A stretch of DNA of 35,037 bases, taken from a virus. Lineage: Duplodnaviria; Heunggongvirae; Uroviricota; Caudoviricetes. The stretch lies in the IMG/VR virus record IMGVR_UViG_2531839130_000012; one strand, given 5' to 3'. Of this stretch, positions 3,699-34,103 are shown in pieces; the first letter of the stretch is position 1; every line of letters begins with the position of its first letter. A program made the translations under genes and the position numbers. Under the pieces are notes generated by a model, which saw only the letters and a program-made list of their open reading frames with translations, made no database searches and was not told where the DNA came from.

Positions 3699-3925
3699 TG
3701 GCTGATGCAATGGATCTCGTACAGCAGCGCGTTGAAGAAGAACGCCAGCGCCATATTCGTGCTGCCCGTGCCAAAACACCGGGCGTGTCTCGCGTGCTTT
3801 GTATTGAATGTGAAGCGCCAATTCCGCCAGCACGACGCCGCGCCATTCCGGGAGTGCAGCTTTGCATTACCTGCCAGGAAATCGCAGAGCTGAAAGGCAA
3901 ACATTACAACGGAGGTGCTGTATGA
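3698..3925 (+). CDS. TraR/DksA-family C4 zinc-finger protein
   Basis: CIECEAPIP...CITC four-cysteine motif in a 75-aa protein; translationally coupled to the downstream gene (ATGA overlap). Confidence 0.65.
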   Translation: MADAMDLVQQRVEEERQRHIRAARAKTPGVSRVLCIECEAPIPPARRRAIPGVQLCITCQEIAELKGKHYNGGAV

Positions 3926-4779
3926 GCACCATCCTGAAATGGGCGGGAAATAAAACCGCCATTATGTCCGAACTGAAAAAACACCTTCCTGCTGGCCCGC
4001 GACTGGTTGAACCTTTCGCGGGTTCCTGTGCTGTGATGATGGAGACGGATTACCCCAGCTATCTGGTTGCGGATATTAATCCTGATTTAATCAACCTCTA
4101 TAAAAAGGTTGCCGCTGATTGTGAATCGTTTATATCTCGCGCCAGAGTTTTATTTGAGATCGCAAACAGGGAGGTGGCTTATTACAACATAAGGCAGGAG
4201 TTTAATTACTCCACTGAAATTACTGATTTCATGAAAGCGGTATATTTCCTGTATCTCAATCGTCACGGTTACCGTGGTTTATGTCGCTATAACAAGAGCG
4301 GGCATTTCAACATTCCCTACGGTAATTATAAAAATCCGTATTTCCCTGAAAAAGAAATTCGCGCATTTGCAGAAAAGGCCCAGCGAGCAACGTTTATCTG
4401 CGCCAGCTTTGATGAAACGCTGGCGATGTTGAAGGCGGGGGATGTGGTGTATTGCGATCCGCCGTATGACGGTACGTTTTCCGGCTATCACACTGACGGC
4501 TTCACTGAAGATGACCAGTATCACCTGGCATCTGTTCTTGAACATCGGTCATCAGAAGGACATCCAGTCATTGTTTCTAACAGTGACACATCCCTGATCC
4601 GTTCGCTGTATCGCAATTTTACTCACCACTACATCAAGGCAAAACGCAGCATCGGTGTGGCAGCTGGCGAGGGTAAATCAGCAACAGAAATCATTGCTGT
4701 TTCCGGGCCGCGCTGCTGGGTGGGATTTGATTATTCGCGTGGCGTGGATAGTTCTGCCGTGTACGGAGTACGTGCATGA
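3922..4779 (+). CDS. dam: DNA N6-adenine methyltransferase, Dam family
   Basis: Motif [10 protein letters not shown] and motif IV DPPY ([10 protein letters not shown]); starts [11 protein letters not shown]; GGAGG Shine-Dalgarno; stop overlaps the gene A start. Confidence 0.85.
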
Positions 4780-7190
4780 GTCATGCCGATATGAACAACT
4801 GCTGCGGCTTTAACGAGGCTGCCGCAGCATTCTCATGGAACAGCCCGAAAAAGGCCATTAACCCTTATCTGGACCCGGCGGAAGTTGCGCCGGTTTCTAC
4901 GCTTTCAAACCTGATCACTCTGTACGCTGCCGATAACGAGCAGGAACAGTTGCGCCGCGAGGCACTGAGTGATCAGGTCTGGGAGCGTTATTTCTTTAAT
5001 GAATCACGTGATCCTGTCCAGCGCGAAATGGAGCAGGATAAGCTCATTAGCCGGGCAAAGCTGGCGCATGAGCAGCAGCGTTTTAATTCAGACATGGTCA
5101 TTCTGGCGGACGTCAACGCCCAGCCTTCCCATATCAGCAAGCCGCTGATGCAACGTATTGAATACTTCAGCAGCCTGGGCAGGCCAAAGGCTTATTCCCG
5201 CTATTTACGTGAGACGATTAAGCCATGTCTGGAACGACTGGAGCATGTACGCGACAGTCAGCTATCTGCATCTTTTCGCTTTATGGCAAGCCATGAAGGG
5301 CTGGACGGCCTGCTGATCCTGCCTGAAATGAGTCAGGATCAGGTGAAACGCCTGTCCACCCTAGTAGCTGCGCATATGAGTATGTGCCTTGATGCAGCTT
5401 GTGGTGATTTGTATGCCACCGATGACGTTAAGCCAGAAGAAATCCGCAAGACATGGGAAAAGGTGGCAGCGGAAACCCTGCGTCTGGATGTCATCCCACC
5501 TGCGTTTGAGCAACTCCGTCGGAAAAGAAACCGCCGTAAACCCGTGCCCTATGAACTCATTCCGGGTTCGCTGGCGCGTATGTTGTGCGCCGACTGGTGG
5601 TATCGGAAATTATGGAAGATGCGTTGCGAATGGCGGGAAGAGCAGTTGCGCGCTGTTTGCCTGGTCAGCAAAAAAGCATCTCCTTATGTCAGCTATGAAG
5701 CCGTGATGCATAAACGTGAGCAGCGCCGTAAGTCGCTGGAGTTTTTCCGTTCTCATGAACTGGTGAACGAAGACGGCGACACGCTGGACATGGAGGATGT
5801 GGTAAACGCCAGCAGCAGCAACCCTGCGCATCGCCGCAATGAGATGATGGCCTGTGTTAAAGGTCTGGAGCTTATCGCGGAAATGCGCGGTGACTGCGCC
5901 GTTTTCTACACTATCACCTGTCCGTCGCGTTTCCATTCCACGCTAAATAACGGCAGACCAAACCCGACCTGGACAAACGCGACGGTAAGACAAAGCAGCG
6001 ATTATCTGGTCGGCATGTTTGCTGCATTTCGTAAGGCGATGCACAAAGCCGGGTTGCGCTGGTATGGCGTGCGGGTGGCTGAGCCGCATCATGATGGCAC
6101 AGTTCACTGGCACCTGTTGTGTTTCATGCGCAAAAAAGACCGCCGTGCCATCACTGCATTACTGCGTAAGTTTGCCATCCGTGAAGACCGCGAGGAGCTG
6201 GGCAATAACACTGGGCCGCGCTTTAAGTCTGAGTTGATTAACCCGCGCAAAGGAACGCCGACAAGCTATATCGCGAAATATATCAGTAAGAACATTGACG
6301 GTCGTGGTCTGGCTGGCGAGATCAGCAAGGAAACGGGTAAATCTCTGCGTGATAACGCTGAATACGTGAATGCCTGGGCGTCTCTGCATCGTGTTCAGCA
6401 ATTCCGCTTCTTTGGTATTCCGGGGCGTCAGGCTTACCGTGAACTTCGCTTGCTGGCTGGTCAGGCGGCAAGGCAACAGGGTGACAAAAAAGCAGGTGCG
6501 CCGGTACTGGATAACCCGCGTCTTGATGCCATTCTGGCTGCTGCTGATGCTGGTTGTTTTGCCACCTACATCATGAAGCAGGGCGGCGTACTGGTTCCCC
6601 GTAAATATCACCTCATCAGAACCGCTTATGAAATCAACGAAGAGCCGACCGCCTATGGCGATCACGGCATTCGTATTTATGGCATCTGGTCACCCATTGC
6701 AGAGGGCAAGATCTGCACTCATGCAGTGAAGTGGAAAATGGTTCGTAAAGCCGTTGACGTTCAGGAGGCGGCAGCCGACCAGGGCGCTTGCGCCCCTTGG
6801 ACTCGTGGCAATAACTGTCCCCTTGCTGAAAATTTGAACCAACAGGAGAAAGATAAATCAGCTGATGGGGACCCCAGAACGGACATTACCCGCATGGATG
6901 ACAAGGTGTTGCACGATTACCTGCACAGTATGAACAAAAAGGAGCGCCGGGAACTGGCTGCAAGGTTACGCCTGGTGAAACCGAAATGGCGTAGAGACTA
7001 CAAACAGCGAATTACAGACCATCAACGACAGCAGCTCGTCTATGAACTGAAGTCCAGAGGATTTGATGGCAGCGAGAAAGAGGTCGATTTACTCCTTCGC
7101 GGCGGCAGTATTCCGTCAGGAGCAGGCCTGCGTATCTTCTATCGGAACCAGCGTTTGCAGGAAGATGATAAGTGGCGGAACCTGTATTAA
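4776..7190 (+). CDS. A: Replication initiation endonuclease A (rolling-circle initiator, P2 gpA family)
   Basis: 804 aa; HUH-like VHWHLL motif and paired-tyrosine [10 protein letters not shown] motif; position after the early operon. Confidence 0.9.
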
Positions 7191-7259
7191 TTACGCTGGT
7201 TAACAATTCGTGCTCTTAATAATACCAGGCATATCAGGCTGATAAGCGTAAAAAAACGT

Positions 7260-7302
7260 TTTACATCAGTAAGATTATTATATACTGTAAACATAAACAG
7301 TG
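7260..7302 (+). promoter_or_regulatory. SOS promoter: -35 TTTACA (7260-7265), -10 TATACT (7281-7286), overlapping LexA box TACTGTAAACATAAACAGTG (7283-7302)
   Basis: CTGT-N8-ACAG core with 16/20 match to the LexA consensus TACTGTATATATATACAGTA, placed over the -10/+1 region about 45 nt upstream of the next ATG. Confidence 0.6.
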
Positions 7303-7343
7303 GTTATACATACAGTATTGCGTGTGGTGTCATAGGAGGAAAG

Positions 7344-7532
7344 ATGCAGGACTATTTTTTGGAGTCTTTGAAGCTCCAGCGCATTGATTTTTTTCTTAAG
7401 CTTGTAGCGGCTAGTGAGTGTAGTGATGAAGAGAAGGGGCTGGCTCTGCAGTGGGTTTCTGAATTGACTGATGAACTCATGGCAAAAATCAGAAGCCACG
7501 AATACAACCGCTCAATGGATGTCATCAACTGA
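7344..7532 (+). CDS. Small SOS-regulated protein (62 aa), possible Tum-like antirepressor N-terminal module
   Basis: Strong TAGGAGGA Shine-Dalgarno before ATG 7344; first ORF after the LexA box; same position as the 186 tum operon. Confidence 0.45.
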   Translation: MQDYFLESLKLQRIDFFLKLVAASECSDEEKGLALQWVSELTDELMAKIRSHEYNRSMDVIN

Positions 7533-7542
7533 GGTGACTTTT

Positions 7543-7776
7543 ATGCGCATTGAAATAATGATCGATAAAGAGCAGAAGATTAGCCAGTCTACCCTGGACG
7601 CCCTTGAATCCGAGCTTTACCGCAATCTGCGCCCCCTGTATCCCAAAACGGTAATCCGTATCCGTAAAGGTAGCTCTAACGGTGTGGAACTGACCGGACT
7701 GCAACTGGACGAAGAAAGAAAACAAGTGATGAAAATTATGCAGAAGGTGTGGGAAGACGACAGCTGGCTGCATTGA
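7543..7776 (+). CDS. DinI-family protein
   Basis: MRIEIMIDK...LDALESELYRNL...YP...KQVMKIMQKVWEDDSW aligns along its length with E. coli DinI (MRIEV..., ...WESADDW); GAGG Shine-Dalgarno before ATG 7543. Confidence 0.75.
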   Translation: MRIEIMIDKEQKISQSTLDALESELYRNLRPLYPKTVIRIRKGSSNGVELTGLQLDEERKQVMKIMQKVWEDDSWLH

Positions 7777-7830
7777 TTTTGTCAATAGACGCTTGTTTTT
7801 ACTAATCAAAAAGGGTTACATATGAGTGAG

Positions 7831-7863
7831 AGGCGATGTCAATCAGATATCGCCTTGTTTTTT
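7831..7863 (+). terminator. Rho-independent terminator-like hairpin (AGGCGAT / ATCGCCT) followed by TTGTTTTTT
   Basis: Read directly from the sequence downstream of the DinI-like gene. Confidence 0.45.
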
Positions 7864-7889
7864 GTCAAGAAAAGAATAATAGGCTAAAA

Positions 7890-8567
7890 ATGAAAATTAA
7901 TAACGTAGCGTTACCAATATCTCTGGCTGTAATCCTAACTGGTTGCGTGCCACATGCTTCTAACCGAAATATCACTGCTATTGAAGTGGTGAAGCCTGCT
8001 ATTGGGCAAAGTGCTACCGCCTACATGGGCGATCCCATTATCACATCTGCTACTGGATTTAAAACGGACGTACTAGAACTTGGTGCGGCTAATGGTGCAT
8101 TGTCTTCTATCGCTGCTGGTACATATTGCAGTGAGGGGAATGGAATTTACCGCAATTATCATAACCCTCAAGCTGTTGCGTTAAAAAATCTCTATGGGCA
8201 AATCGGTAACTATGTTGATTATGTTAGTTACGATGCTGCAAAAAATGAGATATCACCGCCAAATGGTACTTCTTATACTGCATCAGAAATTTCTATCAAA
8301 CGTGTTCCTGATGGGCTGTGTCGAGTTAGTAACTCATTGGTTAAGACTATCGAATACAATGGAAATGCAGGCGGTGTAATGAAGTTCACCTATCGTGAAT
8401 TTGCAAACGATATGGCTCGTGCAGCATTTACAACAGATTTTTCTGTAGATTCTAAGGGAAGTGACGTTATCGCTTACAAAGGTGCCAAGTTCAAAGTGAA
8501 CAAGGCTGATAACTCGTCTATTTCTTATACAATTATTTCTGGCTTTGACAAGACTGTCACGTTCTAG
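7890..8567 (+). CDS. Lipoprotein of unknown function (lipobox LTGC), cargo gene
   Basis: MKINNVALPISLAVILTGC signal with lipobox Cys; AT-rich; sits between the SOS operon and the cos-like site. Confidence 0.6.
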   Translation: MKINNVALPISLAVILTGCVPHASNRNITAIEVVKPAIGQSATAYMGDPIITSATGFKTDVLELGAANGALSSIAAGTYCSEGNGIYRNYHNPQAVALKNLYGQIGNYVDYVSYDAAKNEISPPNGTSYTASEISIKRVPDGLCRVSNSLVKTIEYNGNAGGVMKFTYREFANDMARAAFTTDFSVDSKGSDVIAYKGAKFKVNKADNSSISYTIISGFDKTVTF

Positions 8568-8671
8568 GTTTCACGCTTGCTGAGTATGTTACGATTTTGC
8601 ACATTCTGCATAAACGCGCATGTCTATGCTGCATGAGATCGCATGATCGTTTGAGGATCTTTTGTGTTAAG

Positions 8672-8698
8672 GCCCGCCAGTTCTGGCGGGCTTTTGCG
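8672..8698 (+). terminator. Rho-independent terminator (GCCCGCCAG ttc TGGCGGGC then TTTTG)
   Basis: Perfect GC-rich stem plus T-run downstream of the lipoprotein gene. Confidence 0.6.
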
Positions 8699-8740
8699 TA
8701 GATCATGCAGGTGCATGAAAACCACTACATAAAGCGGGCA

Positions 8741-8759
8741 GGCGTGGCGGGGATACGAG
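8741..8759. other. Candidate cos (cohesive-end) site, GGCGTGGCGGGGA...
   Basis: 13/13 identity to the start of the 19-nt P2/186 cohesive-end sequence as I recall it (GGCG[A/T]GGCGGGGAAAGCA...); location between gene A and the portal gene matches P2/186. Confidence 0.4.
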
Positions 8760-8840
8760 CGCGCGGATGAGTAATCTATACCATCATCTTGATAAAAGTA
8801 TTAAAAATGGTAAATTTAGCAAGCTACATATTAAAGGAAA

Positions 8841-10238
8841 ATGAAGATGTATGAAGTAATTGATATATCAGCGCAGGAAATTAAGGCGTTGTTAAACACT
8901 ACTGAAGATCATTTCAATGATTTTAAAAGTAAGCAAATAGCGCCTAATAAATTACAAGAAACTTTTGTAGCATTTGCAAATGCTGATGGCGGTAATATTT
9001 ATATTGGCATAGAGGATGCAGCTTCGGGGAGAGAGCGTATATCTGGTTTCAATGAGCCAGAGGAAGCGAATGCTATTATTTCGACCTTATTGGAAAATAC
9101 TAATCCAGCTGTTGAGAATGTTGAGGTGGAATATTTAAGAACACCTTCCAATGGATTGATTTTACATGTGGATATACCAAAAAGCCCCAAAGTTCATTAC
9201 ACGGCCTCTGGCGATTGCTTTATAAGAGCTAACGCGCAAAAATTAAAAATAAAAGGTGAGCGAATTACTCAGCTTTCCTATTCTAAAGGCGCAGAACCTT
9301 ATGAAAAAAAAGCAGTGGATATAGTTGAAGTAGAAGATATTCTTGAAAGTGAATATTATTCTGATTATTTACGTAGAATAGGAACGACTCAGTCACCGAG
9401 AGTTTTTTTAAAAAAACAACGACTGTTAACTAAGAAAGATGGTGAATTTGTCCCGAATGTAGGCTGTGTTTTACTATTTGATGAAGAGCCTCAAGGATGT
9501 TTAGATACTCGATGTGCTGTAAAAGTATATCGGCTTAGAACAACTGAAGCAGAGTACAAACGTGAACAATTACAGGAAGATCCTGTAACGATTGAGGGGC
9601 CACTTGAAGTGGTTATTTTAAATACAATAGCAAAAGTAAAAGAATATGTTGATGGAGCATCATTCAAAGACGGCGAAAATCTAGTAAAACTTAGCTATCC
9701 TGCAGAAGCATTGAAGGAAATATTAGTTAATGCTGTTATTCATAGAGATTACAGCCAAAAGGATGATGTGCACGTAAAAGTTTATGACAACCGGATTGAA
9801 GTTCAAAGTCCAGGCAGATTGCCTGGATACATGACTATTAATAATTTATATGAAGAGCGGTTTTCTCGTAATCCAAATTTAGTGCGTTTGTTGCATAAAC
9901 TTCCCAATCCAGTGAACCATGATATTGGTGAGGGGCTTGATACTGCAAAAAATGAATTGCGTAAGGCCGGGTTGGTAGCCCCGGTATTTGAAGAAAGGGG
10001 CAATAATTTTGTTGTAATAGTTAAGCATCAAACAATAGCCTCAATTGAGGATGTGATTATTAATTATTTTAAAGAAAATCCAACGGGACAGCTCACAAAT
10101 AAGTTGGTTAGACAATTAAGTGGCGAAGATGACCTTCAAAAGGTTAAAAAGGCATTGCAAAAGTTAAGGGAGGAGGGCGTAATAAAACCATTAGATCCTA
10201 ACGCGAATCCTTTCAAATTTAAATATATTAAAGCTTAA
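8841..10238 (+). CDS. Schlafen-like/AlbA_2 DNA-binding domain + HATPase_c_4-like domain + C-terminal winged-helix protein (465 aa); candidate defence/cargo gene
   Basis: N-terminal FNDFKSK...VAFANADGGNIYIGIED (AlbA_2/Schlafen signature); central EALKEILVNAVIHRDYS...VKVYDNRIEVQSPGRLP (HATPase_c_4 signature); C-terminal LTNKLVRQLSGEDDLQKVKKALQKLREEGVI (wHTH-like); strongly AT-rich; flanked by terminators; the start may be ATG 8847 rather than 8841. Confidence 0.7.
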   Translation: MKMYEVIDISAQEIKALLNTTEDHFNDFKSKQIAPNKLQETFVAFANADGGNIYIGIEDAASGRERISGFNEPEEANAIISTLLENTNPAVENVEVEYLRTPSNGLILHVDIPKSPKVHYTASGDCFIRANAQKLKIKGERITQLSYSKGAEPYEKKAVDIVEVEDILESEYYSDYLRRIGTTQSPRVFLKKQRLLTKKDGEFVPNVGCVLLFDEEPQGCLDTRCAVKVYRLRTTEAEYKREQLQEDPVTIEGPLEVVILNTIAKVKEYVDGASFKDGENLVKLSYPAEALKEILVNAVIHRDYSQKDDVHVKVYDNRIEVQSPGRLPGYMTINNLYEERFSRNPNLVRLLHKLPNPVNHDIGEGLDTAKNELRKAGLVAPVFEERGNNFVVIVKHQTIASIEDVIINYFKENPTGQLTNKLVRQLSGEDDLQKVKKALQKLREEGVIKPLDPNANPFKFKYIKA

Positions 10239-10244
10239 GTTAAA

Positions 10245-10269
10245 GGTGGAGGTTGTCTCCACCTTTTTT
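10245..10269. terminator. Bidirectional rho-independent terminator (GGTGGAG gttgt CTCCACC, A-run before, T-run after)
   Basis: Between the convergent 465-aa gene and the portal gene. Confidence 0.55.
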
Positions 10270-10289
10270 CATAGGTAATGATTTTTAAA

Positions 10290-11318
10290 TTATAGTTTAT
10301 AGTGTTCGAAAGTTATTGCTTCTTCATTGATCCAATAGTTGAGATCTTGTAACTTCTTCTGAAGTGGCATCAGTTCATTCCGAACAAATACCCGGCTGGC
10401 CTTCTCCACATCCCCAAACCCTCCAACATTATTAGGCATAATCCCCATCATTTGCGGCGGCACGCGGTGCGCAGCCATCATGTCGTCGCGGCTGACATTT
10501 TTGATATTCAGAAATTCATCCTTCGCCGCGACTTCTGATAACGGGATGATTTGAAGCCCGTCCTTTTTGCCGTTAGGCGAGTACATAAACAGATTGCGGA
10601 AGTTGCCTGGACCTTTGGCGCTTTTCATTGCGTTGCGGAGGTTGTTCACATCCTCCTGGTTCTGCGCGGCATCGGTCATGTACATGATGAAGCCTGCATG
10701 GCTGCCGTTGATGTAATACTTACGGCGGAACAGCGTGGCGGACTCGTTGAGCAGGGCTGACGGAATGGCAGAAAGATAGCCGGGCAGGCCGTAGATCTCC
10801 TGGTTAATGTCCGGTTCCATCAGATGAAAAATGCTGCCTTTCGTGAACTGATACGGCTGGGTTGTCATACCGTATTGCACAAACCAGTAGGTATCCAGGT
10901 CTAACCCGCGTCGGGTGTATTTTGCCAGAGCAGGCTCAAGGGCGATAACTTCACCGAAGCGGTTCGTGCGTTTCTCCAGGTAGGCGTTACCAAATACCAG
11001 ATAGTCCTGCACAAAACGTGAAAAAGCCTGCTGGCTGAGCAGCGGATGGGGGATGTAGGTACTGGTCAGAATGTTGCATTTCACCGCAATTGGTGAACTG
11101 TGATGCACGGCGGCGCGGAAGGTGCGTGCCAGTCCGTCAAAGCTTACTGGCGGCTCATACCAGCGATCTGTCTGTACGCATTCCACATAGTCCAGTAGTT
11201 CGCGGCGGTCCAGAACAGGAACGGGATCACCGAAGCTGAATGCTTCGGCTGTAGTTTGACTTTTATGCTGGATCTGGTTCGTCGACGCAGCGCGGTTCTT
11301 CTTACTCTTTCCCATCAA
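10290..11318 (-). CDS. Q: Portal protein (P2 gpQ family)
   Basis: 342 aa; first late gene next to the cos region, co-oriented with and overlapping the terminase ATPase gene, as in the P2 PQ operon. Confidence 0.9.
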   Translation of the reverse strand: MMGKSKKNRAASTNQIQHKSQTTAEAFSFGDPVPVLDRRELLDYVECVQTDRWYEPPVSFDGLARTFRAAVHHSSPIAVKCNILTSTYIPHPLLSQQAFSRFVQDYLVFGNAYLEKRTNRFGEVIALEPALAKYTRRGLDLDTYWFVQYGMTTQPYQFTKGSIFHLMEPDINQEIYGLPGYLSAIPSALLNESATLFRRKYYINGSHAGFIMYMTDAAQNQEDVNNLRNAMKSAKGPGNFRNLFMYSPNGKKDGLQIIPLSEVAAKDEFLNIKNVSRDDMMAAHRVPPQMMGIMPNNVGGFGDVEKASRVFVRNELMPLQKKLQDLNYWINEEAITFEHYKL

Positions 11319-13081
11319 AAAATCTCCACAATATTACTGGTATTGGCGGACTCGCCCTGCAGTGGTTCGTTAAACAGTGCGTGCATTGTTGCCCAGGCCA
11401 GATCGGCGTGGCTGGCTTCTTCGCTGCGGCTGGCTTCATAGGTCGGGCGGTTGCCGCTGGCGGTGGTGGCGCGACGGATTGCCATGAATGACTGCGCAAT
11501 GTCGGTGTGCCCGGCGTCAAACTCCAGACGGCGGTGGCTGATAATGTCGTAGGCCTTGAGCACCAGGGCGTTTTTAACGTTGGGGTTGTAGACAAACTCC
11601 CGGACGGCAGGAAAGAATGCTTTCACGTTCTCGTAAACCCCGTGACCAACGCCGGTTGAGTCGATACCGATATAAGTCACGTTGTACTGTTCGGTCAGTT
11701 TTTTGATGGCGTCAGCCTGAGCGCGGAAGTCCATCCCGCGCCACTGGTGACGCTCAAGAATGCGGAATTTACCGCCCGGTACGGCTGGCGGTGCCACCAC
11801 CACGCATCCGGCACTGTCGCCGTTCTGAGTACCTTTTGCGGGGTCATAACCGATCCATACTTCGCGCCAGCCAAACGGGCGCAGGGCCAGTGCATGAAAG
11901 TCGGTCCAGATTTCCCAGCTGTCCACCATGCACGCCTGCAGTTCGCTGAGCGGGAACACGGACGCGAGATCGTCCACGAACTCGCACATCAGCAGGTTCT
12001 GGTATTCGTCCGGGCTGTACTCCATGCGCAGCTGGTCGAGGTCGAACAGGTTACAGCCGCCGCGCACCGCATCTTCCACGGTGACTATCTGGCGGTATTG
12101 CCCGTCTGCGCACAGCAGGCCGGGGGCCAGATTGCTGTGGGACAGGTCGATGTCCACCTTGTCAGCTTTGTTGCGTCCACGGTTGAACAGCGCACCGGAC
12201 CAGAACGGATAAGCACTGTGGGTCAGGCTGGATGGCGTGGAAAAATAGGTTTGTCGCCATTTCTTGTGAATAGCCATCCCGGAAGCCACTTTGCGCAGCT
12301 CCTGGAATTTCGGGATCCAGAAATATTCATCCAGATACAGGTTGCCGTGGTAACTCTGGGCCGTGCGGGCATTGGTTCCGAGGAAGTAAAGCGTAGCCCC
12401 ATTAGGAAGCACCATCGGATCGCCTTTCAGCTCCACCTCCACTTCTTTGGCGAAGTCGATGATGTACTGCTTAAAGACGTGGGCCTGTGCCTTACTGGCG
12501 GAAAGGAAAATCTGGTTACGTCCGGTCAGCAGGGCGTCAATCAGGGCTTCACGGGCAAAATAGAAGGTCGCGCCGATCTGGCGTGACTTCAGCAAGTTGC
12601 GGATGCGGTTGGTTTTTCCGGCTTCCCACCAGTGGCGCTGGTAGTTGAACATGGAGGAATGAAAGATTTCTTCCAGCTTCTCAATCTGTTCATCGGTGAA
12701 AACATTCTTTTCCGGCTGACGGCGCGGGCCTTTGTTACGGTTGGCGACGTTAGGGTTTAAGTCGGCTTCGTTGCCGCCATTGTTAAACTTGCCGATCCGC
12801 GCGTGGCGTTCCGACTGGCGCGCCAGCAGGTCAATCTCTTTGAAATCTTTCCCTTCTTTGTGCTCCTTCATAATGAGCTGGCAGTAGCGTGCGGCGGTGG
12901 TGAGCTGCATCTGATCCAGCGGCCCATAGTCACCCCACTTGTCGCGTTTTTTCCAGCTGTGAACGGTTGCAACTTTCTCGCCCAGCATTTCAGCAATGCG
13001 GGCGACGCGGTATCCCTGAAAGTACAGCAGCATGGCCTGCCGACGGGGATCGAGATCTGCGGGTGTCAGTGTGGTGTTCAT
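11315..13081 (-). CDS. P: Terminase large (ATPase) subunit (P2 gpP family)
   Basis: 588 aa; synteny and size. Confidence 0.9.
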   Translation of the reverse strand: MNTTLTPADLDPRRQAMLLYFQGYRVARIAEMLGEKVATVHSWKKRDKWGDYGPLDQMQLTTAARYCQLIMKEHKEGKDFKEIDLLARQSERHARIGKFNNGGNEADLNPNVANRNKGPRRQPEKNVFTDEQIEKLEEIFHSSMFNYQRHWWEAGKTNRIRNLLKSRQIGATFYFAREALIDALLTGRNQIFLSASKAQAHVFKQYIIDFAKEVEVELKGDPMVLPNGATLYFLGTNARTAQSYHGNLYLDEYFWIPKFQELRKVASGMAIHKKWRQTYFSTPSSLTHSAYPFWSGALFNRGRNKADKVDIDLSHSNLAPGLLCADGQYRQIVTVEDAVRGGCNLFDLDQLRMEYSPDEYQNLLMCEFVDDLASVFPLSELQACMVDSWEIWTDFHALALRPFGWREVWIGYDPAKGTQNGDSAGCVVVAPPAVPGGKFRILERHQWRGMDFRAQADAIKKLTEQYNVTYIGIDSTGVGHGVYENVKAFFPAVREFVYNPNVKNALVLKAYDIISHRRLEFDAGHTDIAQSFMAIRRATTASGNRPTYEASRSEEASHADLAWATMHALFNEPLQGESANTSNIVEIF

Positions 13082-22915: not shown

Positions 22916-23099
22916 TCCAGTTACTTTGACTGAAGTAATCCCCGGTCTTCATGACGTGACCGGGGCTATTGAATTACCGGAGGACAACTGGTTTTTTACT
23001 ATGACAGAAATTCCTCAGGGCATGGAGCTAACAATTAATGAGAAAGGCGAACCAATACTGATTGAGGTTAATCAGTCTCAGGGAATACAGGCCAAATAA
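22902..23099 (+). pseudogene. Truncated gpG-like tail-fibre assembly chaperone (66 aa, N-terminal part only)
   Basis: GGAGGG Shine-Dalgarno and GTG start overlapping the fibre-tip stop; ...PEDNWFFTMTEIPQGMELTINEKGEPILIEV resembles the N-terminal region of P2 gpG (...[28 protein letters not shown]...); ends where the convergent chaperone gene ends. Confidence 0.4.
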
Positions 23100-23673
23100 T
23101 ATCAGGCGCGGTGCTGGTATCTATTGCCGTCACCGCGTCAATGTAATCCAGCACAGCGTTAAGGCGGGTTGTTTCTGCCTGCGTCAGTTTACGTCCGGCC
23201 TGCAATTTCAGCTGAATCAGACTGATGGAAGCCATAGCAGCATCAATCAGAGACTGGCGCTGTACTTCTGCTGCATCTACTGCGGCGCTATGCTGTGCCT
23301 CGGTATCTGTTACCCATTTCTCACCATCCCATTTATCGTATGGCGTTAATGGGGCAAAAGTGGTCGTATTTTCAGGGTAATCCCCCGGCACAGTAATTTC
23401 TTTTGATTCCCCCGTTTCGATGCCATAGACAATTTCACCGCGATGGTCTGGCACATATTCCCATGAGTTAAAATCTGCAGAACGGCAGATTGCATAACCA
23501 GCCTTATGTGTGCCGGGCGCATCGGTACAGGAATTGGCAGGAATACCCACCCCCACAGGCAGATACTCAAGCGATGAGGATATGTATTCGCGGGTGTCGC
23601 CCCGGTAGTTGTACACAGTGATTTCTCCTGCCACGGTGGCAATAAACGCACTGTTTAATTTTGCTTTCGCCAT
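23068..23673 (-). CDS. Tail-fibre assembly chaperone (Tfa family) of the alternative cassette
   Basis: 201 aa ending ...DYIDAVTAIDTSTAPDIIWPVFPETD (conserved Tfa C-terminal motif); start codon overlaps the stop of the upstream fibre cassette. Confidence 0.75.
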   Translation of the reverse strand: MAKAKLNSAFIATVAGEITVYNYRGDTREYISSSLEYLPVGVGIPANSCTDAPGTHKAGYAICRSADFNSWEYVPDHRGEIVYGIETGESKEITVPGDYPENTTTFAPLTPYDKWDGEKWVTDTEAQHSAAVDAAEVQRQSLIDAAMASISLIQLKLQAGRKLTQAETTRLNAVLDYIDAVTAIDTSTAPDIIWPVFPETD

Positions 23674-24257
23674 TATGCAGCCCTCACGATGTAGTTAAAT
23701 GCAATGTTGCGCGGACGGGTTTCAGATGCGTACACGGACGGATGAGTAACACCGTCTGAGGTCGATGCCCTGTAAGTCCTGAATGGTGGTAATCCGGGCG
23801 CTATTTCGTTGTTATTACCTGTTGGTGAAAGGTCCTTGCGATAAAGGATTACCTTGTCTGCCCTACTGGTTGCGTCCCATGATGTTCCTGACGACGATGG
23901 ACTCAGGACCGCACTGGGTATTTCTGGTTCATCGTTGAAAACCGTATAGATATCGCTTTCCATCTGGTATGACGGATTACCCACTCCGGTTGGCAGAGCG
24001 TGCGCATGGTCCTGGAAAGCAAAACTCTGACAACTGAGAAGTATGCGCCCCCCATCAATCCCTCGCCCGCCATCCCAGCCACGAATAAACTCACCACGTA
24101 AATCTGGCAATTTATTTGTCGGGTAAGCCTTTGCCAGTTCCGGGTATTCTTCAGCAGAAAAAGCCGCACCATTGCATTTCAGCCAGCCTGTTGGCGGAGT
24201 GGCTGAAGGCCACGGAACAGGGACACCAACAGGTAATGCAGAGCCTTCTCCCAAACC
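23673..24257 (-). CDS. Alternative tail-fibre C-terminal cassette with tail-collar domain (promoterless; would fuse to H after inversion)
   Basis: Reads GLGEGSALPVGVPVPWPSATPPTGWLKCNGAAFSAEEYPELAKAY...LPDLRGEFIRGWD (tail-collar-like) starting at the right crossover site; shares the GLGE junction codons with H. Confidence 0.7.
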   Translation of the reverse strand, partial: GLGEGSALPVGVPVPWPSATPPTGWLKCNGAAFSAEEYPELAKAYPTNKLPDLRGEFIRGWDGGRGIDGGRILLSCQSFAFQDHAHALPTGVGNPSYQMESDIYTVFNDEPEIPSAVLSPSSSGTSWDATSRADKVILYRKDLSPTGNNNEIAPGLPPFRTYRASTSDGVTHPSVYASETRPRNIAFNYIVRAA

Positions 24258-24271
24258 AACGTTTATGAAAA
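24246..24271. other. hix/gix-like 26-bp crossover site, right: TTCTCCCAAACC-AA-CGTTTATGAAAA
   Basis: Inverted relative to the left site; core AA versus TT. Confidence 0.6.
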
Positions 24272-24326
24272 TGCAGAGATAATGGTTAACTGGCATCATC
24301 CCCGGTTTTTATTCAGGGGGATGCTC

Positions 24327-24893
24327 ATGCTTATTGGCTATGTACGCGTGTCAACAAATGACCAGAACACCGATTTGCAACGTAATGCACTGAACTGCGC
24401 GGGATGTGAGCGAATTTTTGAGGATAAAATCAGTGGCACTAAGTCCGACAGACCAGGGTTGAAAAAACTGCTCAGGACACTATCGGCAGGAGACACGCTG
24501 GTTGTCTGGAAGCTGGACAGGTTGGGGCGCAGTATGCGGCATCTTGTTACGCTGATAGAAGAGTTGCGTCAGCAAGGCGTGAATTTCCGAAGCCTGACTG
24601 ACAGTATTGATACCAGCACCCCAATGGGCCGTTTCTTTTTTCATGTCATGGGTGCCCTGGCTGAAATGGAACGCGAACTGATAGTTGAACGTACCAGGGC
24701 AGGGCTGGCTGCAGCTCGTGCCAAAGGCAGAGTAGGTGGACGCCGTCCTAAGTTGACCACCGAACAGTGGGCACAGATTGGGCGTTTACTCGAGGCCGGA
24801 GAATCAAGACAGCGTATTGCACTGATTTTTGATGTGGGTGTTTCCACAATTTATAGAAAATTTCCGGCAAATAAGAGCAATGAATCCCCCTGA
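24327..24893 (+). CDS. Serine DNA invertase, Gin/Pin/Cin/Hin family
   Basis: MLIGYVRVSTNDQNTDLQRNAL...LVVWKLDRLGRSM...FRSLTDSIDTS...MGRFFFHVMGALAEMERELI closely resembles Mu Gin; C-terminal HTH. Confidence 0.85.
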   Translation: MLIGYVRVSTNDQNTDLQRNALNCAGCERIFEDKISGTKSDRPGLKKLLRTLSAGDTLVVWKLDRLGRSMRHLVTLIEELRQQGVNFRSLTDSIDTSTPMGRFFFHVMGALAEMERELIVERTRAGLAAARAKGRVGGRRPKLTTEQWAQIGRLLEAGESRQRIALIFDVGVSTIYRKFPANKSNESP

Positions 24894-32417: not shown

Positions 32418-34103
32418 TTATCCTAATCCTGGCCATACCATGACGATGATTGTCCCTGCCAGCGTCAGCAGGACGTTGGCGATTGCGTAGGTGCCCGCGT
32501 AGCCCAGCGCAGGGATGTTACTGCGAGCTGTATCACTGATGATCTCCATTGCCGGCGCGCAGGTGCGTGCGCCCATCATTGCGCCGAACAACAGTGCGCG
32601 GTTCATTCGCAATACATAAGCACCGAACAAGAAACAGATAACCACGGGCACAAGACTGACAATTAATCCGGCAATCAACATCTGACCGCCAATCGCGCCC
32701 AGGCCGTTATTAATACCGCTACCGGCGCTCAGACCAACGCCTGCCATAAACACCATCAAGCCGAACTCTTTCACCATGCTTAATGCACCTTGCGGAATGT
32801 AACCGAAGGTCGGGTGGTTAGCACGCATAAAGCCCAGCATAATTCCGGCGAATAACAACCCGGCAGCGTTCCCCATGCCGAAACTGAATGTGCTGAACTG
32901 GAAGGTGATCATCCCGATCATCAGCCCAATAACAAAGAAGGCGCAAAATGCCAGCAGGTCAGTGACCTGGCTGTGAATCGAGATAAAGCCGATGCGATCG
33001 GCGATGGTTTTTACGCGACGGGCATCACCGCTGACTTGTAAAACGTCACCTTTGTTAAGCACGACGTTGTCATCTATCGGCATCTCAATCTGGCTACGAA
33101 TGACGCGGTTAAGGAAGCAACCGTGATCGGTCAACTTCAGTTGTGCGAGACGTTTACCTACAGCGTTATGGTTTTTAACGACCACTTCTTCAGTGACGAT
33201 ACGCATGTCGAGAAGGTCACGATCGAAAACTTCTTTACCGTTACGGAAGCTGGGATCGAGTCGGGCATGGGCGTCGGGATAGCCTACCAACGCTATTTCA
33301 TCGCCCATTTGTAGCACGGCATCACCGTCTGGATTTGCCAGAATCCCGTTACGTCGAATACGTTCAATGTAGCAGCCGGTTTGTCGATAAATACCCAGTT
33401 CACGCAGATTTTTGCCGTCGGTCCAGGCCACCAGCTCCGGGCCGACGCGATAGGCGCGGATCACCGGTAAATAAACCTTACGGTTGGCATCAGTGTCCAG
33501 GCCACGTTCGCGGGCGATTTGCTGGGCGCTGGTCTGTAAGTCCTGATGCTGCAATTTCGGCAAGTAACGCGCACCAACAATCAAACTCACCAGACCGATT
33601 AAATAGGTTAAGGCATACCCGAGGCTCAGATTATCCAGTGCCAGTGAGAGCTGCCTGCTTTCCATGCCGGAATGACGCAGTGTATCGCCAGCACCGACCA
33701 GAACCGGTGTCGACGTCATAGAGCCTGCTAACATACCGGCCGTCAGGCCAATATCCCAGCCAAACAGCTTACCTAACCCTAAGGCGATCACCAGCGCACT
33801 GCCAACCATCACCAGTGCTAACATTAGGTAATTTTTCCCATCGCGAAAAAAAATGGAAAAAAAGTTCGGTCCGGCTTCGACCCCGACGCAGAAAATAAAC
33901 AGCATAAAGCCAAGATTAAGCGCATCGGTGTTAATGCTGAAATGTTGTTGGCCTAATAACAGCGATACGACTAAAACGCCAATGGAATTACCCAGTTGGA
34001 TCGAACCAAGTCGTAACTTTCCGAGACATAGCCCAAGCGCGAGGACCACAAATAATAACAGAATGTAATTCCCATTTAACAATTCGGCGACGTTTATATT
34101 CAC
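32418..34103 (-). CDS. ybjL: Putative AAE-family transport protein YbjL (chromosomal)
   Basis: 561-aa polytopic membrane protein with central soluble domains; size, and position next to ybjM and grxA, match E. coli ybjL. Confidence 0.85.

Follow-up and report, generated by a model that had tools for sequence, protein, structure and literature searches.

A cos-proximal cargo gene of a Fels-2/186-like prophage encodes a Schlafen, GHKL-like and winged-helix protein: a candidate RNase of phage defense

In this study, a single gene was analyzed in a 35,037-nucleotide stretch of viral DNA (IMG/VR record IMGVR_UViG_2531839130_000012; Caudoviricetes), the whole of which is called the window. The window is a complete Fels-2/186-like (Peduoviridae) prophage. 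The gene is a moron in the cos-proximal defense hotspot of this prophage, next to portal gene Q, and its product joins a Schlafen (Slfn)/AlbA_2 domain, a GHKL-like domain of the HATPase_c_4 family and a C-terminal winged helix-turn-helix (wHTH) domain. The analysis directly showed which domains are present, that the catalytic motif is intact and invariant and that the folds match known ones, as well as cargo status, solitary organization and alternation with abortive infection (Abi) genes. On balance, we lean toward the view that the protein is a stand-alone, prophage-encoded Slfn-HisKinase-HTH RNase that is triggered by infection and arrests translation against competing phages.

Variable cargo between cos and the portal gene

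The cargo open reading frame (ORF; 8841..10238, + strand, 465 amino acids) lies on the strand opposite to the portal and terminase genes. The content of guanine plus cytosine (GC) is 0.36 in the gene and 0.26 in its upstream region, against 0.53-0.57 in the replication gene gpA and the portal and terminase genes. A preliminary description of this DNA, made from the letters alone, had picked out an AT-rich single ORF running against the portal operon, and the composition and orientation agree with it. The features of the slot are as follows.

8618..8765: conserved cos-flanking block, left border of the variable slot
About 8709-8765: cos region, which carries GGCGTGGCGGGGATACGAG at 8740-8758
8766..10365: cargo module open to exchange (1,600 bp), made up of the gene with its upstream region and terminator plus the final 76 nt of the portal gene
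8789..8816, + strand: candidate sigma-70 promoter (-35 TTGATA at 8789-8794, 16-nt spacer, extended -10 TGgTAAATT at 8808-8816)
8847..10238, + strand: Slfn-GHKL-wHTH coding sequence, 463 amino acids (465 from the upstream ATG at 8841)
10242..10266, both strands: intrinsic-terminator hairpin with a 10-bp stem, between the cargo gene and portal gene Q
10290..10365, - strand: last 25 codons of portal gene Q, GC 0.30 against 0.53 in the rest of Q

The cos-flanking block is 96-100% identical in Fels-2, 813R9 and many Peduoviridae of Klebsiella, Salmonella and E. coli, and it is invariant in six orthologous loci that carry the cargo gene. The linear record of phage Cartapus begins at window 8709, and its positions 1-57, annotated as a 'putative cos site' (P2-type), correspond to window 8709-8765. 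This places the gene between cos and portal gene Q, where the preliminary description had put it. Fels-2 is 97.6% identical to window 7000-8765; the identity ends after 8765 and returns at 10366, and therefore the exchanged module spans 8766-10365. In phage vB_EcoM-813R9, identity returns at 10375. Because the last 25 codons of Q are exchanged together with the cargo, the boundary at which the hotspot recombines falls within the portal gene rather than between the genes.

The cos block was found in about 1,276 of 5,426 complete E. coli genomes, and only 8 of these carry the cargo gene; the eight copies are 99.7-99.9% identical and always adjoin the portal gene. The gene thus lies between gpA and gpQ by cos, varies among related prophages, and is variable cargo of the gpA-gpQ hotspot, which has been documented as a reservoir of defense genes (Rousset et al. 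2022, PMC9122126). The gene occupies the corresponding slot in prophages of E. coli ERP001 and of four Enterobacterales loci with clustered flanks (Raoultella, E. ludwigii, Citrobacter and Rahnella). In other prophages, the slot holds different genes: AbiU in Fels-2 (STM2723.1, PADLOC E=3e-112), an AbiU-like AIPR protein in another (E=2e-36), a Hypoth_Ymh protein with PD-Lambda-3_B/HEPN-like matches in a further one, and a cassette of PDC-M11A plus an Abi-like gene in three strains. Alternation with defense genes, which the preliminary description had proposed to look for, was found in this slot. In E. coli HS, the cos-to-portal slot encodes a 463-amino-acid hypothetical protein without a PADLOC match (WP_001003256.1; L060, 4654-6045). 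It was considered as a diverged homolog of the cargo protein and rejected as unrelated (E=0.63); it may be a candidate uncharacterized cargo gene in its own right.

The ERP001 copy of the cargo protein has the accession WP_001471283, which is listed as 'HATPase_c_4/AlbA_2' in a P2-hotspot arrangement in the supplementary table of Rousset et al. 2022 (PMC9122126). The same table also lists DUF262/AlbA_2 cargo, the architecture of the validated EcoSlfn7, in both P2 and P4 hotspots. Like old and tin of P2 and other gpA-gpQ cargo, the gene forms a short, AT-rich, self-contained cassette by cos that alternates with Abi-type genes; unlike the case of old and tin, to which its protein is unrelated, the arrangement in the window is rare and has only been catalogued in that survey. 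A megablast search against 50,697 phage records matched only a 66-nt cos block and did not find the cargo gene, and a protein-level search of the phage collection yielded only distant homologs (24-31% identity) in actinophages and gut-virome contigs.

The preliminary description had taken 8841 as the start of a 465-amino-acid protein. The ATG at 8847, which gives 463 amino acids, is likely the true start, because nearly all database orthologs have this length, because ATG-TAT-GAA is invariant in the six orthologous loci, and because the AGGA at 8835-8838 sits 8 nt before 8847 and only 2 nt before 8841. The window protein is 100% identical to E. coli entries named 'RNA-binding domain-containing protein' on 291 contigs.

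The promoter and terminators suggested earlier were confirmed, with one correction for the left terminator. A consensus scan recovered TTGATA, a 16-nt spacer and TAAATT (8811-8816) with the TG extension; promoter-like sites in the region numbered 9 against 9.5 expected by chance, so that the scan alone is no evidence for a promoter. Real support comes from an alignment of the upstream regions of the six loci, which are prophages of E. coli (two), Raoultella, Enterobacter ludwigii, Citrobacter and Rahnella (71-99% identity). CTTGAT and TGGTAAATT are invariant in all of them, while the spacer, the flanks and the downstream leader vary. This phylogenetic footprint argues for the candidate promoter as a conserved one that belongs to the cargo gene itself. 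Hairpins fold on both sides of the gene. The right one (10242-10266) has a folding energy (dG) of -15.1 on the + strand (z -3.9), where it is followed by T6, and of -15.6 on the - strand (z -5.5); transcription of the cargo gene and of the convergent portal gene probably ends there. The left one (8669-8694; dG -22.3, z -4.7) is not part of the cargo module, because it lies inside the cos-flanking block 8618-8765 that is common to prophages with other cargo.

Domain architecture and the predicted nuclease

The regions of the protein, in window coordinates, are as follows.

8904..9251, + strand: predicted Schlafen/AlbA_2 nuclease domain, with the catalytic motif E-x4-D-x-K (E20, D25 and K27 in 463-amino-acid numbering) at 8904-8927
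9252..9764, + strand: linker and middle alpha/beta region between the two Pfam domains
9765..10019, + strand: HATPase_c_4 domain (GHKL/Bergerat-like, 'minimal histidine kinase')
10038..10235, + strand: C-terminal wHTH domain

Pfam SLFN_AlbA_2 (PF04326) matched residues 22-137 with a score of 66.9 bits (gathering cut-off 25.3; E=3e-18), covering positions 1-117 of the 118 in the model, and HATPase_c_4 matched residues 309-393 (E=3e-17, far above the gathering score). The C-terminal wHTH resembles ArsR/MarR-type domains. One polypeptide therefore carries, in order, an Slfn domain, a histidine-kinase-like ATPase domain and an HTH domain. A structure model from a 62-sequence alignment (24-92% identity) reached a predicted local distance difference test (pLDDT) score of 92.2 and a predicted template modeling (pTM) score of 0.82; a first AlphaFold2 run on 19 close orthologs reached a pLDDT of 60.7 and was not used for conclusions. 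The predicted structure matches the nuclease folds of SLFN11, SLFN5 and SAMD9, GHKL ATPase folds and winged-helix folds. Pfam, the model and the fold matches all bear out the three-domain architecture that had been read from the sequence.

The catalytic motif of the window protein is E20-DHFN-D25-F-K27, and E20, D25 and K27 are invariant in 39 orthologs from many phyla. When the family profile was compared with SLFN14, SLFN12, SLFN13, SLFN11 and SLFN5, it matched the C-lobe of the nuclease (E 1e-7 to 7e-10) with the catalytic residues in register; the E-x4-D-x-K of the family aligns with E-STHV-E-F-K of SLFN14. Ex4(E/D)xK is the catalytic motif defined for SLFN11 and prokaryotic Schlafens (Perez Taboada et al., Nat Microbiol 2026, PMC13056530). 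Nucleic-acid binding, as proposed in the preliminary description, is too vague a mechanism for this protein, as the invariant Ex4DxK points to a predicted endoribonuclease of the Schlafen type, with RNA as its target by homology. The Schlafen part of the family profile also matches the recently deposited 'CbCash' (PDB 9ylu; 297 amino acids, 3 entries with 28 chains; E=1e-3), on which no paper was found in the literature searched.

The middle region (9252-9764) was modeled with a pLDDT above 85 and aligns with the corresponding part of PDB 3LMM; it overlaps a partial PADLOC match to 'Aga_SIR2-PNTD' at residues 190-327. In the GHKL-like domain, E291, N295, H299, S321-P322-G323, R341-N342 and G361/G363 are invariant among the 39 orthologs. 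E291-x3-N295 is N-box-like, and G361-E-G363 is present. At the G1 position, all 39 orthologs and nearly all of 62 diverse homologs have S321-P322-G323 instead of DxGxG. The fold is GHKL-like; on inspection of the sequence, the canonical set of GHKL ATPase motifs is incomplete, with no DxGxG that includes the adenine-binding Asp.

NCBIfam yielded no family for the window protein, and PADLOC gave no full-length match to a named system. Its partial matches were to the Aga_SIR2-PNTD models and to the N-terminal part of a prokaryotic Argonaute (pAgo) fusion model (positions 55-437 of 1121). The earlier statement was right that this architecture is not that of any named system with experimental validation. 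The PHROGs label 'DNA helicase' (phrog_12156) was rejected, as SLFN_AlbA_2 and HATPase_c_4 are the only Pfam domains, and is treated here as an old RecG-like misnomer; an equivalent point was made for TrlG by Hapeshi et al. 2020 (PMC7554251).

Distribution, relatives and the remainder of the prophage

The superfamily comprises 8,505 clusters at 50% identity (E<=1e-3). Within the subfamily of the window protein, homologs from Citrobacter, Raoultella, Enterobacter (with E. ludwigii and E. hormaechei) and Pantoea (with P. agglomerans) are 91-92% identical to it. The value drops to 82-84% in Rahnella, Dickeya and Pantoea dispersa, and to 58-71% in other Pseudomonadota, Chryseobacterium, Gimesia, a Kiritimatiellota isolate, Paenibacillus and Methanosarcina. 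No domain is hypervariable within the subfamily, and the GHKL-like domain is the most conserved. The archaeal copy, in Methanosarcina sp. Mfa9 (L046, 10001-11335), is 60% identical to the window protein, and a Firmicute copy is found in Paenibacillus sp. (L047); these copies imply that the gene moved between domains of life recently or is under very strong constraint.

Outside the prophage slot, the gene is solitary on the chromosome amid unrelated genes, and most close homologs are chromosomal and not viral. When the neighboring ORFs of 46 loci were clustered, no conserved partner gene was found, which upholds the single-gene nature claimed for the system. The association with defense genes is present in the P2-hotspot slot of Enterobacterales and weak elsewhere. 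In Thiobacillus denitrificans (L009, 7908-11389), a homolog immediately follows htpG, which encodes Hsp90 (itself a GHKL ATPase), in the same orientation, probably by coincidence.

The preliminary description had called the protein undescribed. This does not apply to its architecture, which is that of the Slfn-HisKinase-HTH class of prokaryotic Schlafens (pSlfn), nor to the protein itself, which is already in the table of Rousset et al. 2022. Slfn-HisKinase-HTH and Slfn-HisKinase proteins account for 19.2% and 34.0% of 5,930 prokaryotic Schlafens; they are the commonest pSlfn architectures and make up over half of those surveyed (PMC13056530). The window protein shares with the Slfn-HisKinase-HTH class an N-terminal Slfn nuclease domain with Ex4(E/D)xK, a histidine-kinase-like ATPase domain, an HTH, a single-gene organization and occurrence in Enterobacterales. 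In the same study, an Ig-like fusion (RorSlfn5) cleaved tRNA when triggered by phage, and a DUF262 fusion (EcoSlfn7) gave protection; both kinds of fusion defend E. coli through tRNA cleavage set off by phage. The window protein differs from these validated members in being a HisKinase-HTH fusion. It also differs from RorSlfn5, whose sensor domain varies between orthologs, in that its family has no variable domain. Two further reports concern related nucleases: an Enterococcus Schlafen defends by abortive infection, and the toxicity of Avs9 depends on its AlbA_2 active site.

The combination 'Schlafen RNase + minimal histidine kinase + wHTH' has also been linked to bacteriophage exclusion (BREX) and BREX-related loci in at least 1,017 taxa (NAR 2026, PMC12839542). 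The three-domain architecture and the predicted role as a suicidal endoRNase are the same for these back-up effectors and the window protein, both roles being predictions. The BREX-linked effectors are embedded in or adjoin BREX, whereas the window copy stands alone in a prophage hotspot, and no partner is conserved among its orthologs elsewhere.

TrlG of Photorhabdus laumondii arrests growth reversibly at 36 C, with many cells remaining viable, and its spontaneous suppressors carry loss-of-function substitutions in both AlbA_2 and HATPase_c_4 (Hapeshi et al. 2020, PMC7554251). It shares the AlbA_2 and HATPase_c_4 core with the window protein, and its experimentally shown growth arrest needs both domains. 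Unlike the window gene, trlG belongs to a trlR-trlF-trlG operon beside the AAA-like ATPase TrlF, and its trigger is temperature; TrlG-type proteins, including the TrlF-linked homologs, are about 26% identical to the window protein, and a plasmid copy (L058) is shorter, at about 387 amino acids. That operon is absent around the window gene, and clustering of the 46 loci found no conserved neighbor. The plasmid copy lies on the IncC plasmid pNDM-KN (1-10169) in a type I restriction-modification (R-M) operon with the order R, TrlF, TrlG-like (AlbA_2/HATPase_c_4), S, AAA ATPase and M. This TrlF-TrlG pair inside an R-M operon suggests that the temperature restriction locus of Photorhabdus belongs to a defense-linked family. 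A literature search on COG2865, TrlF and 'prokaryotic Schlafen' found nothing further beyond the TrlG paper.

Five HsdR-type fusion proteins (P0132, P0136, P0137, P0141 and P0163) carry the whole Slfn plus HATPase_c_4 module at the N-terminus, with 37-43% identity over almost its full length. Their fusion partners are ResIII/SNF2, Helicase_C and EcoEI_R_C, with PADLOC REase_I matches down to 2e-130. In canonical HsdR, the N-terminal position is that of the DNA nuclease domain. Temperate actinophages carry homologs that are 27-30% identical, in Mycobacterium phage Squirty (L059, 3962-5398) and as gp38 of Gordonia phages. The Squirty gene gp31 lies in the integrase/repressor (immunity) region beside the RelA/SpoT-like gp29, and looks like prophage-borne Schlafen cargo.

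Mammalian SLFN11, SLFN13, SLFN14 and SAMD9/9L have a homologous nuclease fold and catalytic motif. In mammalian Schlafens and SAMD9, nucleic-acid-sensing or NTPase modules are joined to the nuclease, whose antiviral action is to stop translation by cleaving tRNA. Unlike mammalian Schlafens, with their two-lobed N-domain and SF1 helicase or STAND NTPase partner, the window protein has one lobe, followed by the GHKL-like and wHTH domains. DIP2311 of Corynebacterium diphtheriae (PDB 3LMM), a protein of no known function whose structure comes from structural genomics, differs in being longer (583 amino acids) and is 16% identical.

The remainder of the prophage is laid out as follows.

1-1110, - strand: integrase
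1426-2001, - strand: CI-type repressor
3862-4779: Dam-type methylase
4776-7190: replication gene A (gpA), followed in order by a DinI-like gene, a 243-amino-acid gene of unknown function and the Slfn cargo gene
10290-11318, - strand: portal gene Q
11315-13081, - strand: terminase P, with the head, tail and lysis genes beyond
32418-34103: host permease gene

ARAGORN found no tRNA gene anywhere in the window. The low-GC zone reaches left to about 7190 and takes in another variable slot (7775-8617), independent of the first and on the side of cos that faces gpA. This slot contains a gene (7836-8567, + strand) for a 243-amino-acid protein of unknown function that matches phrog_1353 (E=8e-105), has no Pfam or PADLOC match, and has an N-terminus that resembles a lipoprotein signal (..LAVILTGC..). 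The protein is found in Fels-2 (STM2726) and E. coli HS, and not in 813R9 or ERP001. At 24282-24893, a Hin/Gin-type serine invertase (Resolvase plus HTH_7) adjoins oppositely oriented genes for the C-terminal part of a tail collar/fiber and for tail-fiber assembly (23068-24299). The GC content is lower there too, and 23068-24893 looks like an invertible host-range segment.

Proposed function and its alternatives

In the mechanism that we propose, the cargo gene would be expressed from its own promoter in the lysogen, and the GHKL-like and winged-helix regions would keep the protein inactive until they sense a cue from an infecting phage. As a speculation, this cue may be a nucleic acid or nucleotide; this is more plausible than a fast-evolving phage protein, because the family has no variable sensor domain and is conserved across phyla. 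The predicted Schlafen endoribonuclease (E20/D25/K27) would then cleave tRNA or rRNA. Translation would stop and cell growth would be arrested, the burst of the invader would fall as in abortive infection, and the lysogen population would be protected. The Pfam domains and catalytic motif, the precedents of pSlfn fusions, the Enterococcus Schlafen, Avs9 and TrlG, the hotspot context, the HsdR fusions, the R-M operon on pNDM-KN, the linkage to BREX and the copies in actinophage immunity regions are counted as support for such a defense RNase.

Several observations weigh against this proposal. An identity of 58-92% across phyla together with the lack of a variable sensor domain is unusual for arms-race proteins. 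Outside prophages, the subfamily is solitary amid housekeeping, transporter and transposase genes, and the 150 nearest neighbors at 42 non-prophage loci are heterogeneous in Pfam content and include few PADLOC matches: R-M systems of type III and type IIG (one each), PDC-S01 and a small number of generic ATPases. Regulation by ATP is uncertain, and canonical adenine binding appears doubtful because the G1 box reads SPG and not DxGxG. HisKinase fusions were among the seven constructs tested by Perez Taboada et al. (PMC13056530), of which only the DUF262 and Ig-like fusions protected; the four tested architectures as listed there do not include the HisKinase-HTH class. In the literature, no experiment was found on the window protein or on any Slfn-HisKinase-HTH member.

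A more specific form of the defense proposal deserves mention as a tentative idea, which we hold to be rather doubtful. The subfamily as a whole could be a self-contained, broad-host-range immune tRNase whose GHKL-like and wHTH part senses a universal cue, either a nucleic-acid structure or a nucleotide, and not a phage protein. Such a tRNase would explain why whole proteins remain 58-92% identical among Pseudomonadota, Bacteroidota, Planctomycetota, Firmicutes and an archaeon, with no variable domain and no partner gene.

The same conservation would also fit a conserved cellular cue, and the protein may be a growth-arrest module of the TrlG type, triggered by stress or physiology (temperature shift, stationary phase or DNA damage) with no direct antiviral sensing; either the host or the prophage could profit, the latter for instance through addiction or control of induction. 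No link to phage has ever been made for TrlG, the one protein with the two-domain core that has been studied, and in many taxa the subfamily stands alone amid housekeeping genes. Against this stand the low identity of TrlG-type proteins and their work in a trlR-trlF-trlG operon that is absent here. The R-M operon on pNDM-KN suggests that TrlG is defense-related too, and the Enterobacterales slot otherwise holds Abi genes. We consider such a module unlikely. Slightly less likely again is a restriction-like factor, in which the Schlafen/AlbA_2 and wHTH domains would bind or cleave invading DNA. The position of the module at the N-terminus of HsdR-type motors favors DNA as the target; however, all the characterized Schlafen-fold nucleases in the papers cited cleave tRNA or rRNA, Ex4DxK aligns with the RNase site, and RorSlfn5 is activated without induction of the SOS response.

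A role in the phage's own lytic cycle or in counter-defense, such as reprogramming host translation or decay of host RNA after induction or infection, is improbable. The gene has its own putative promoter at the extreme left end of the virion DNA by cos, on the strand opposite to the late genes, and one relative (P0138) has a weak, sub-threshold antirepressor-like ANT/KilAC match at its N-terminus (E=4.8e-4; 20.9 bits against 25.3). On the other hand, the gene is dispensable for the phage, as its presence in so few of the related prophage-bearing genomes indicates, its close homologs are mostly chromosomal, and the hotspot is a documented defense reservoir. Least probable is that the protein merely regulates transcription or binds nucleic acids without catalysis. 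Database names such as 'transcriptional regulator', 'putative DNA binding domain-containing protein' and 'RNA-binding domain-containing protein' and the ArsR/MarR-like wHTH speak for this, but the names are automatic annotations, a simple repressor would need neither an invariant catalytic triad nor an invariant GHKL-like core, and no conserved target gene lies nearby.

In sum, the architecture and the catalog entry of this protein were already known. Slfn-HisKinase(-HTH) proteins form over half of the surveyed prokaryotic Schlafens, and none has a demonstrated function or trigger. The prophage copy is a natural, E. coli-compatible member that has its own conserved candidate promoter and sits in a slot otherwise carrying Abi genes. 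The first hypothesis that follows from the locus is competition between phages, possibly against phages outside the standard panels. If a trigger were found, it would reveal how a winged helix together with a degenerate GHKL domain gates a Schlafen RNase, and would also tie in the growth arrest mediated by TrlG and the relatives embedded in R-M and BREX loci. If no defense phenotype were seen, a non-immune role would be suggested for a widespread and highly conserved gene. Its conservation from phylum to phylum, which extends to an archaeon, is unusual, as is the lack of a variable sensor domain in its product. Should the universal-cue reading be true, it would give the most abundant, still orphan class of prokaryotic Schlafens its trigger.

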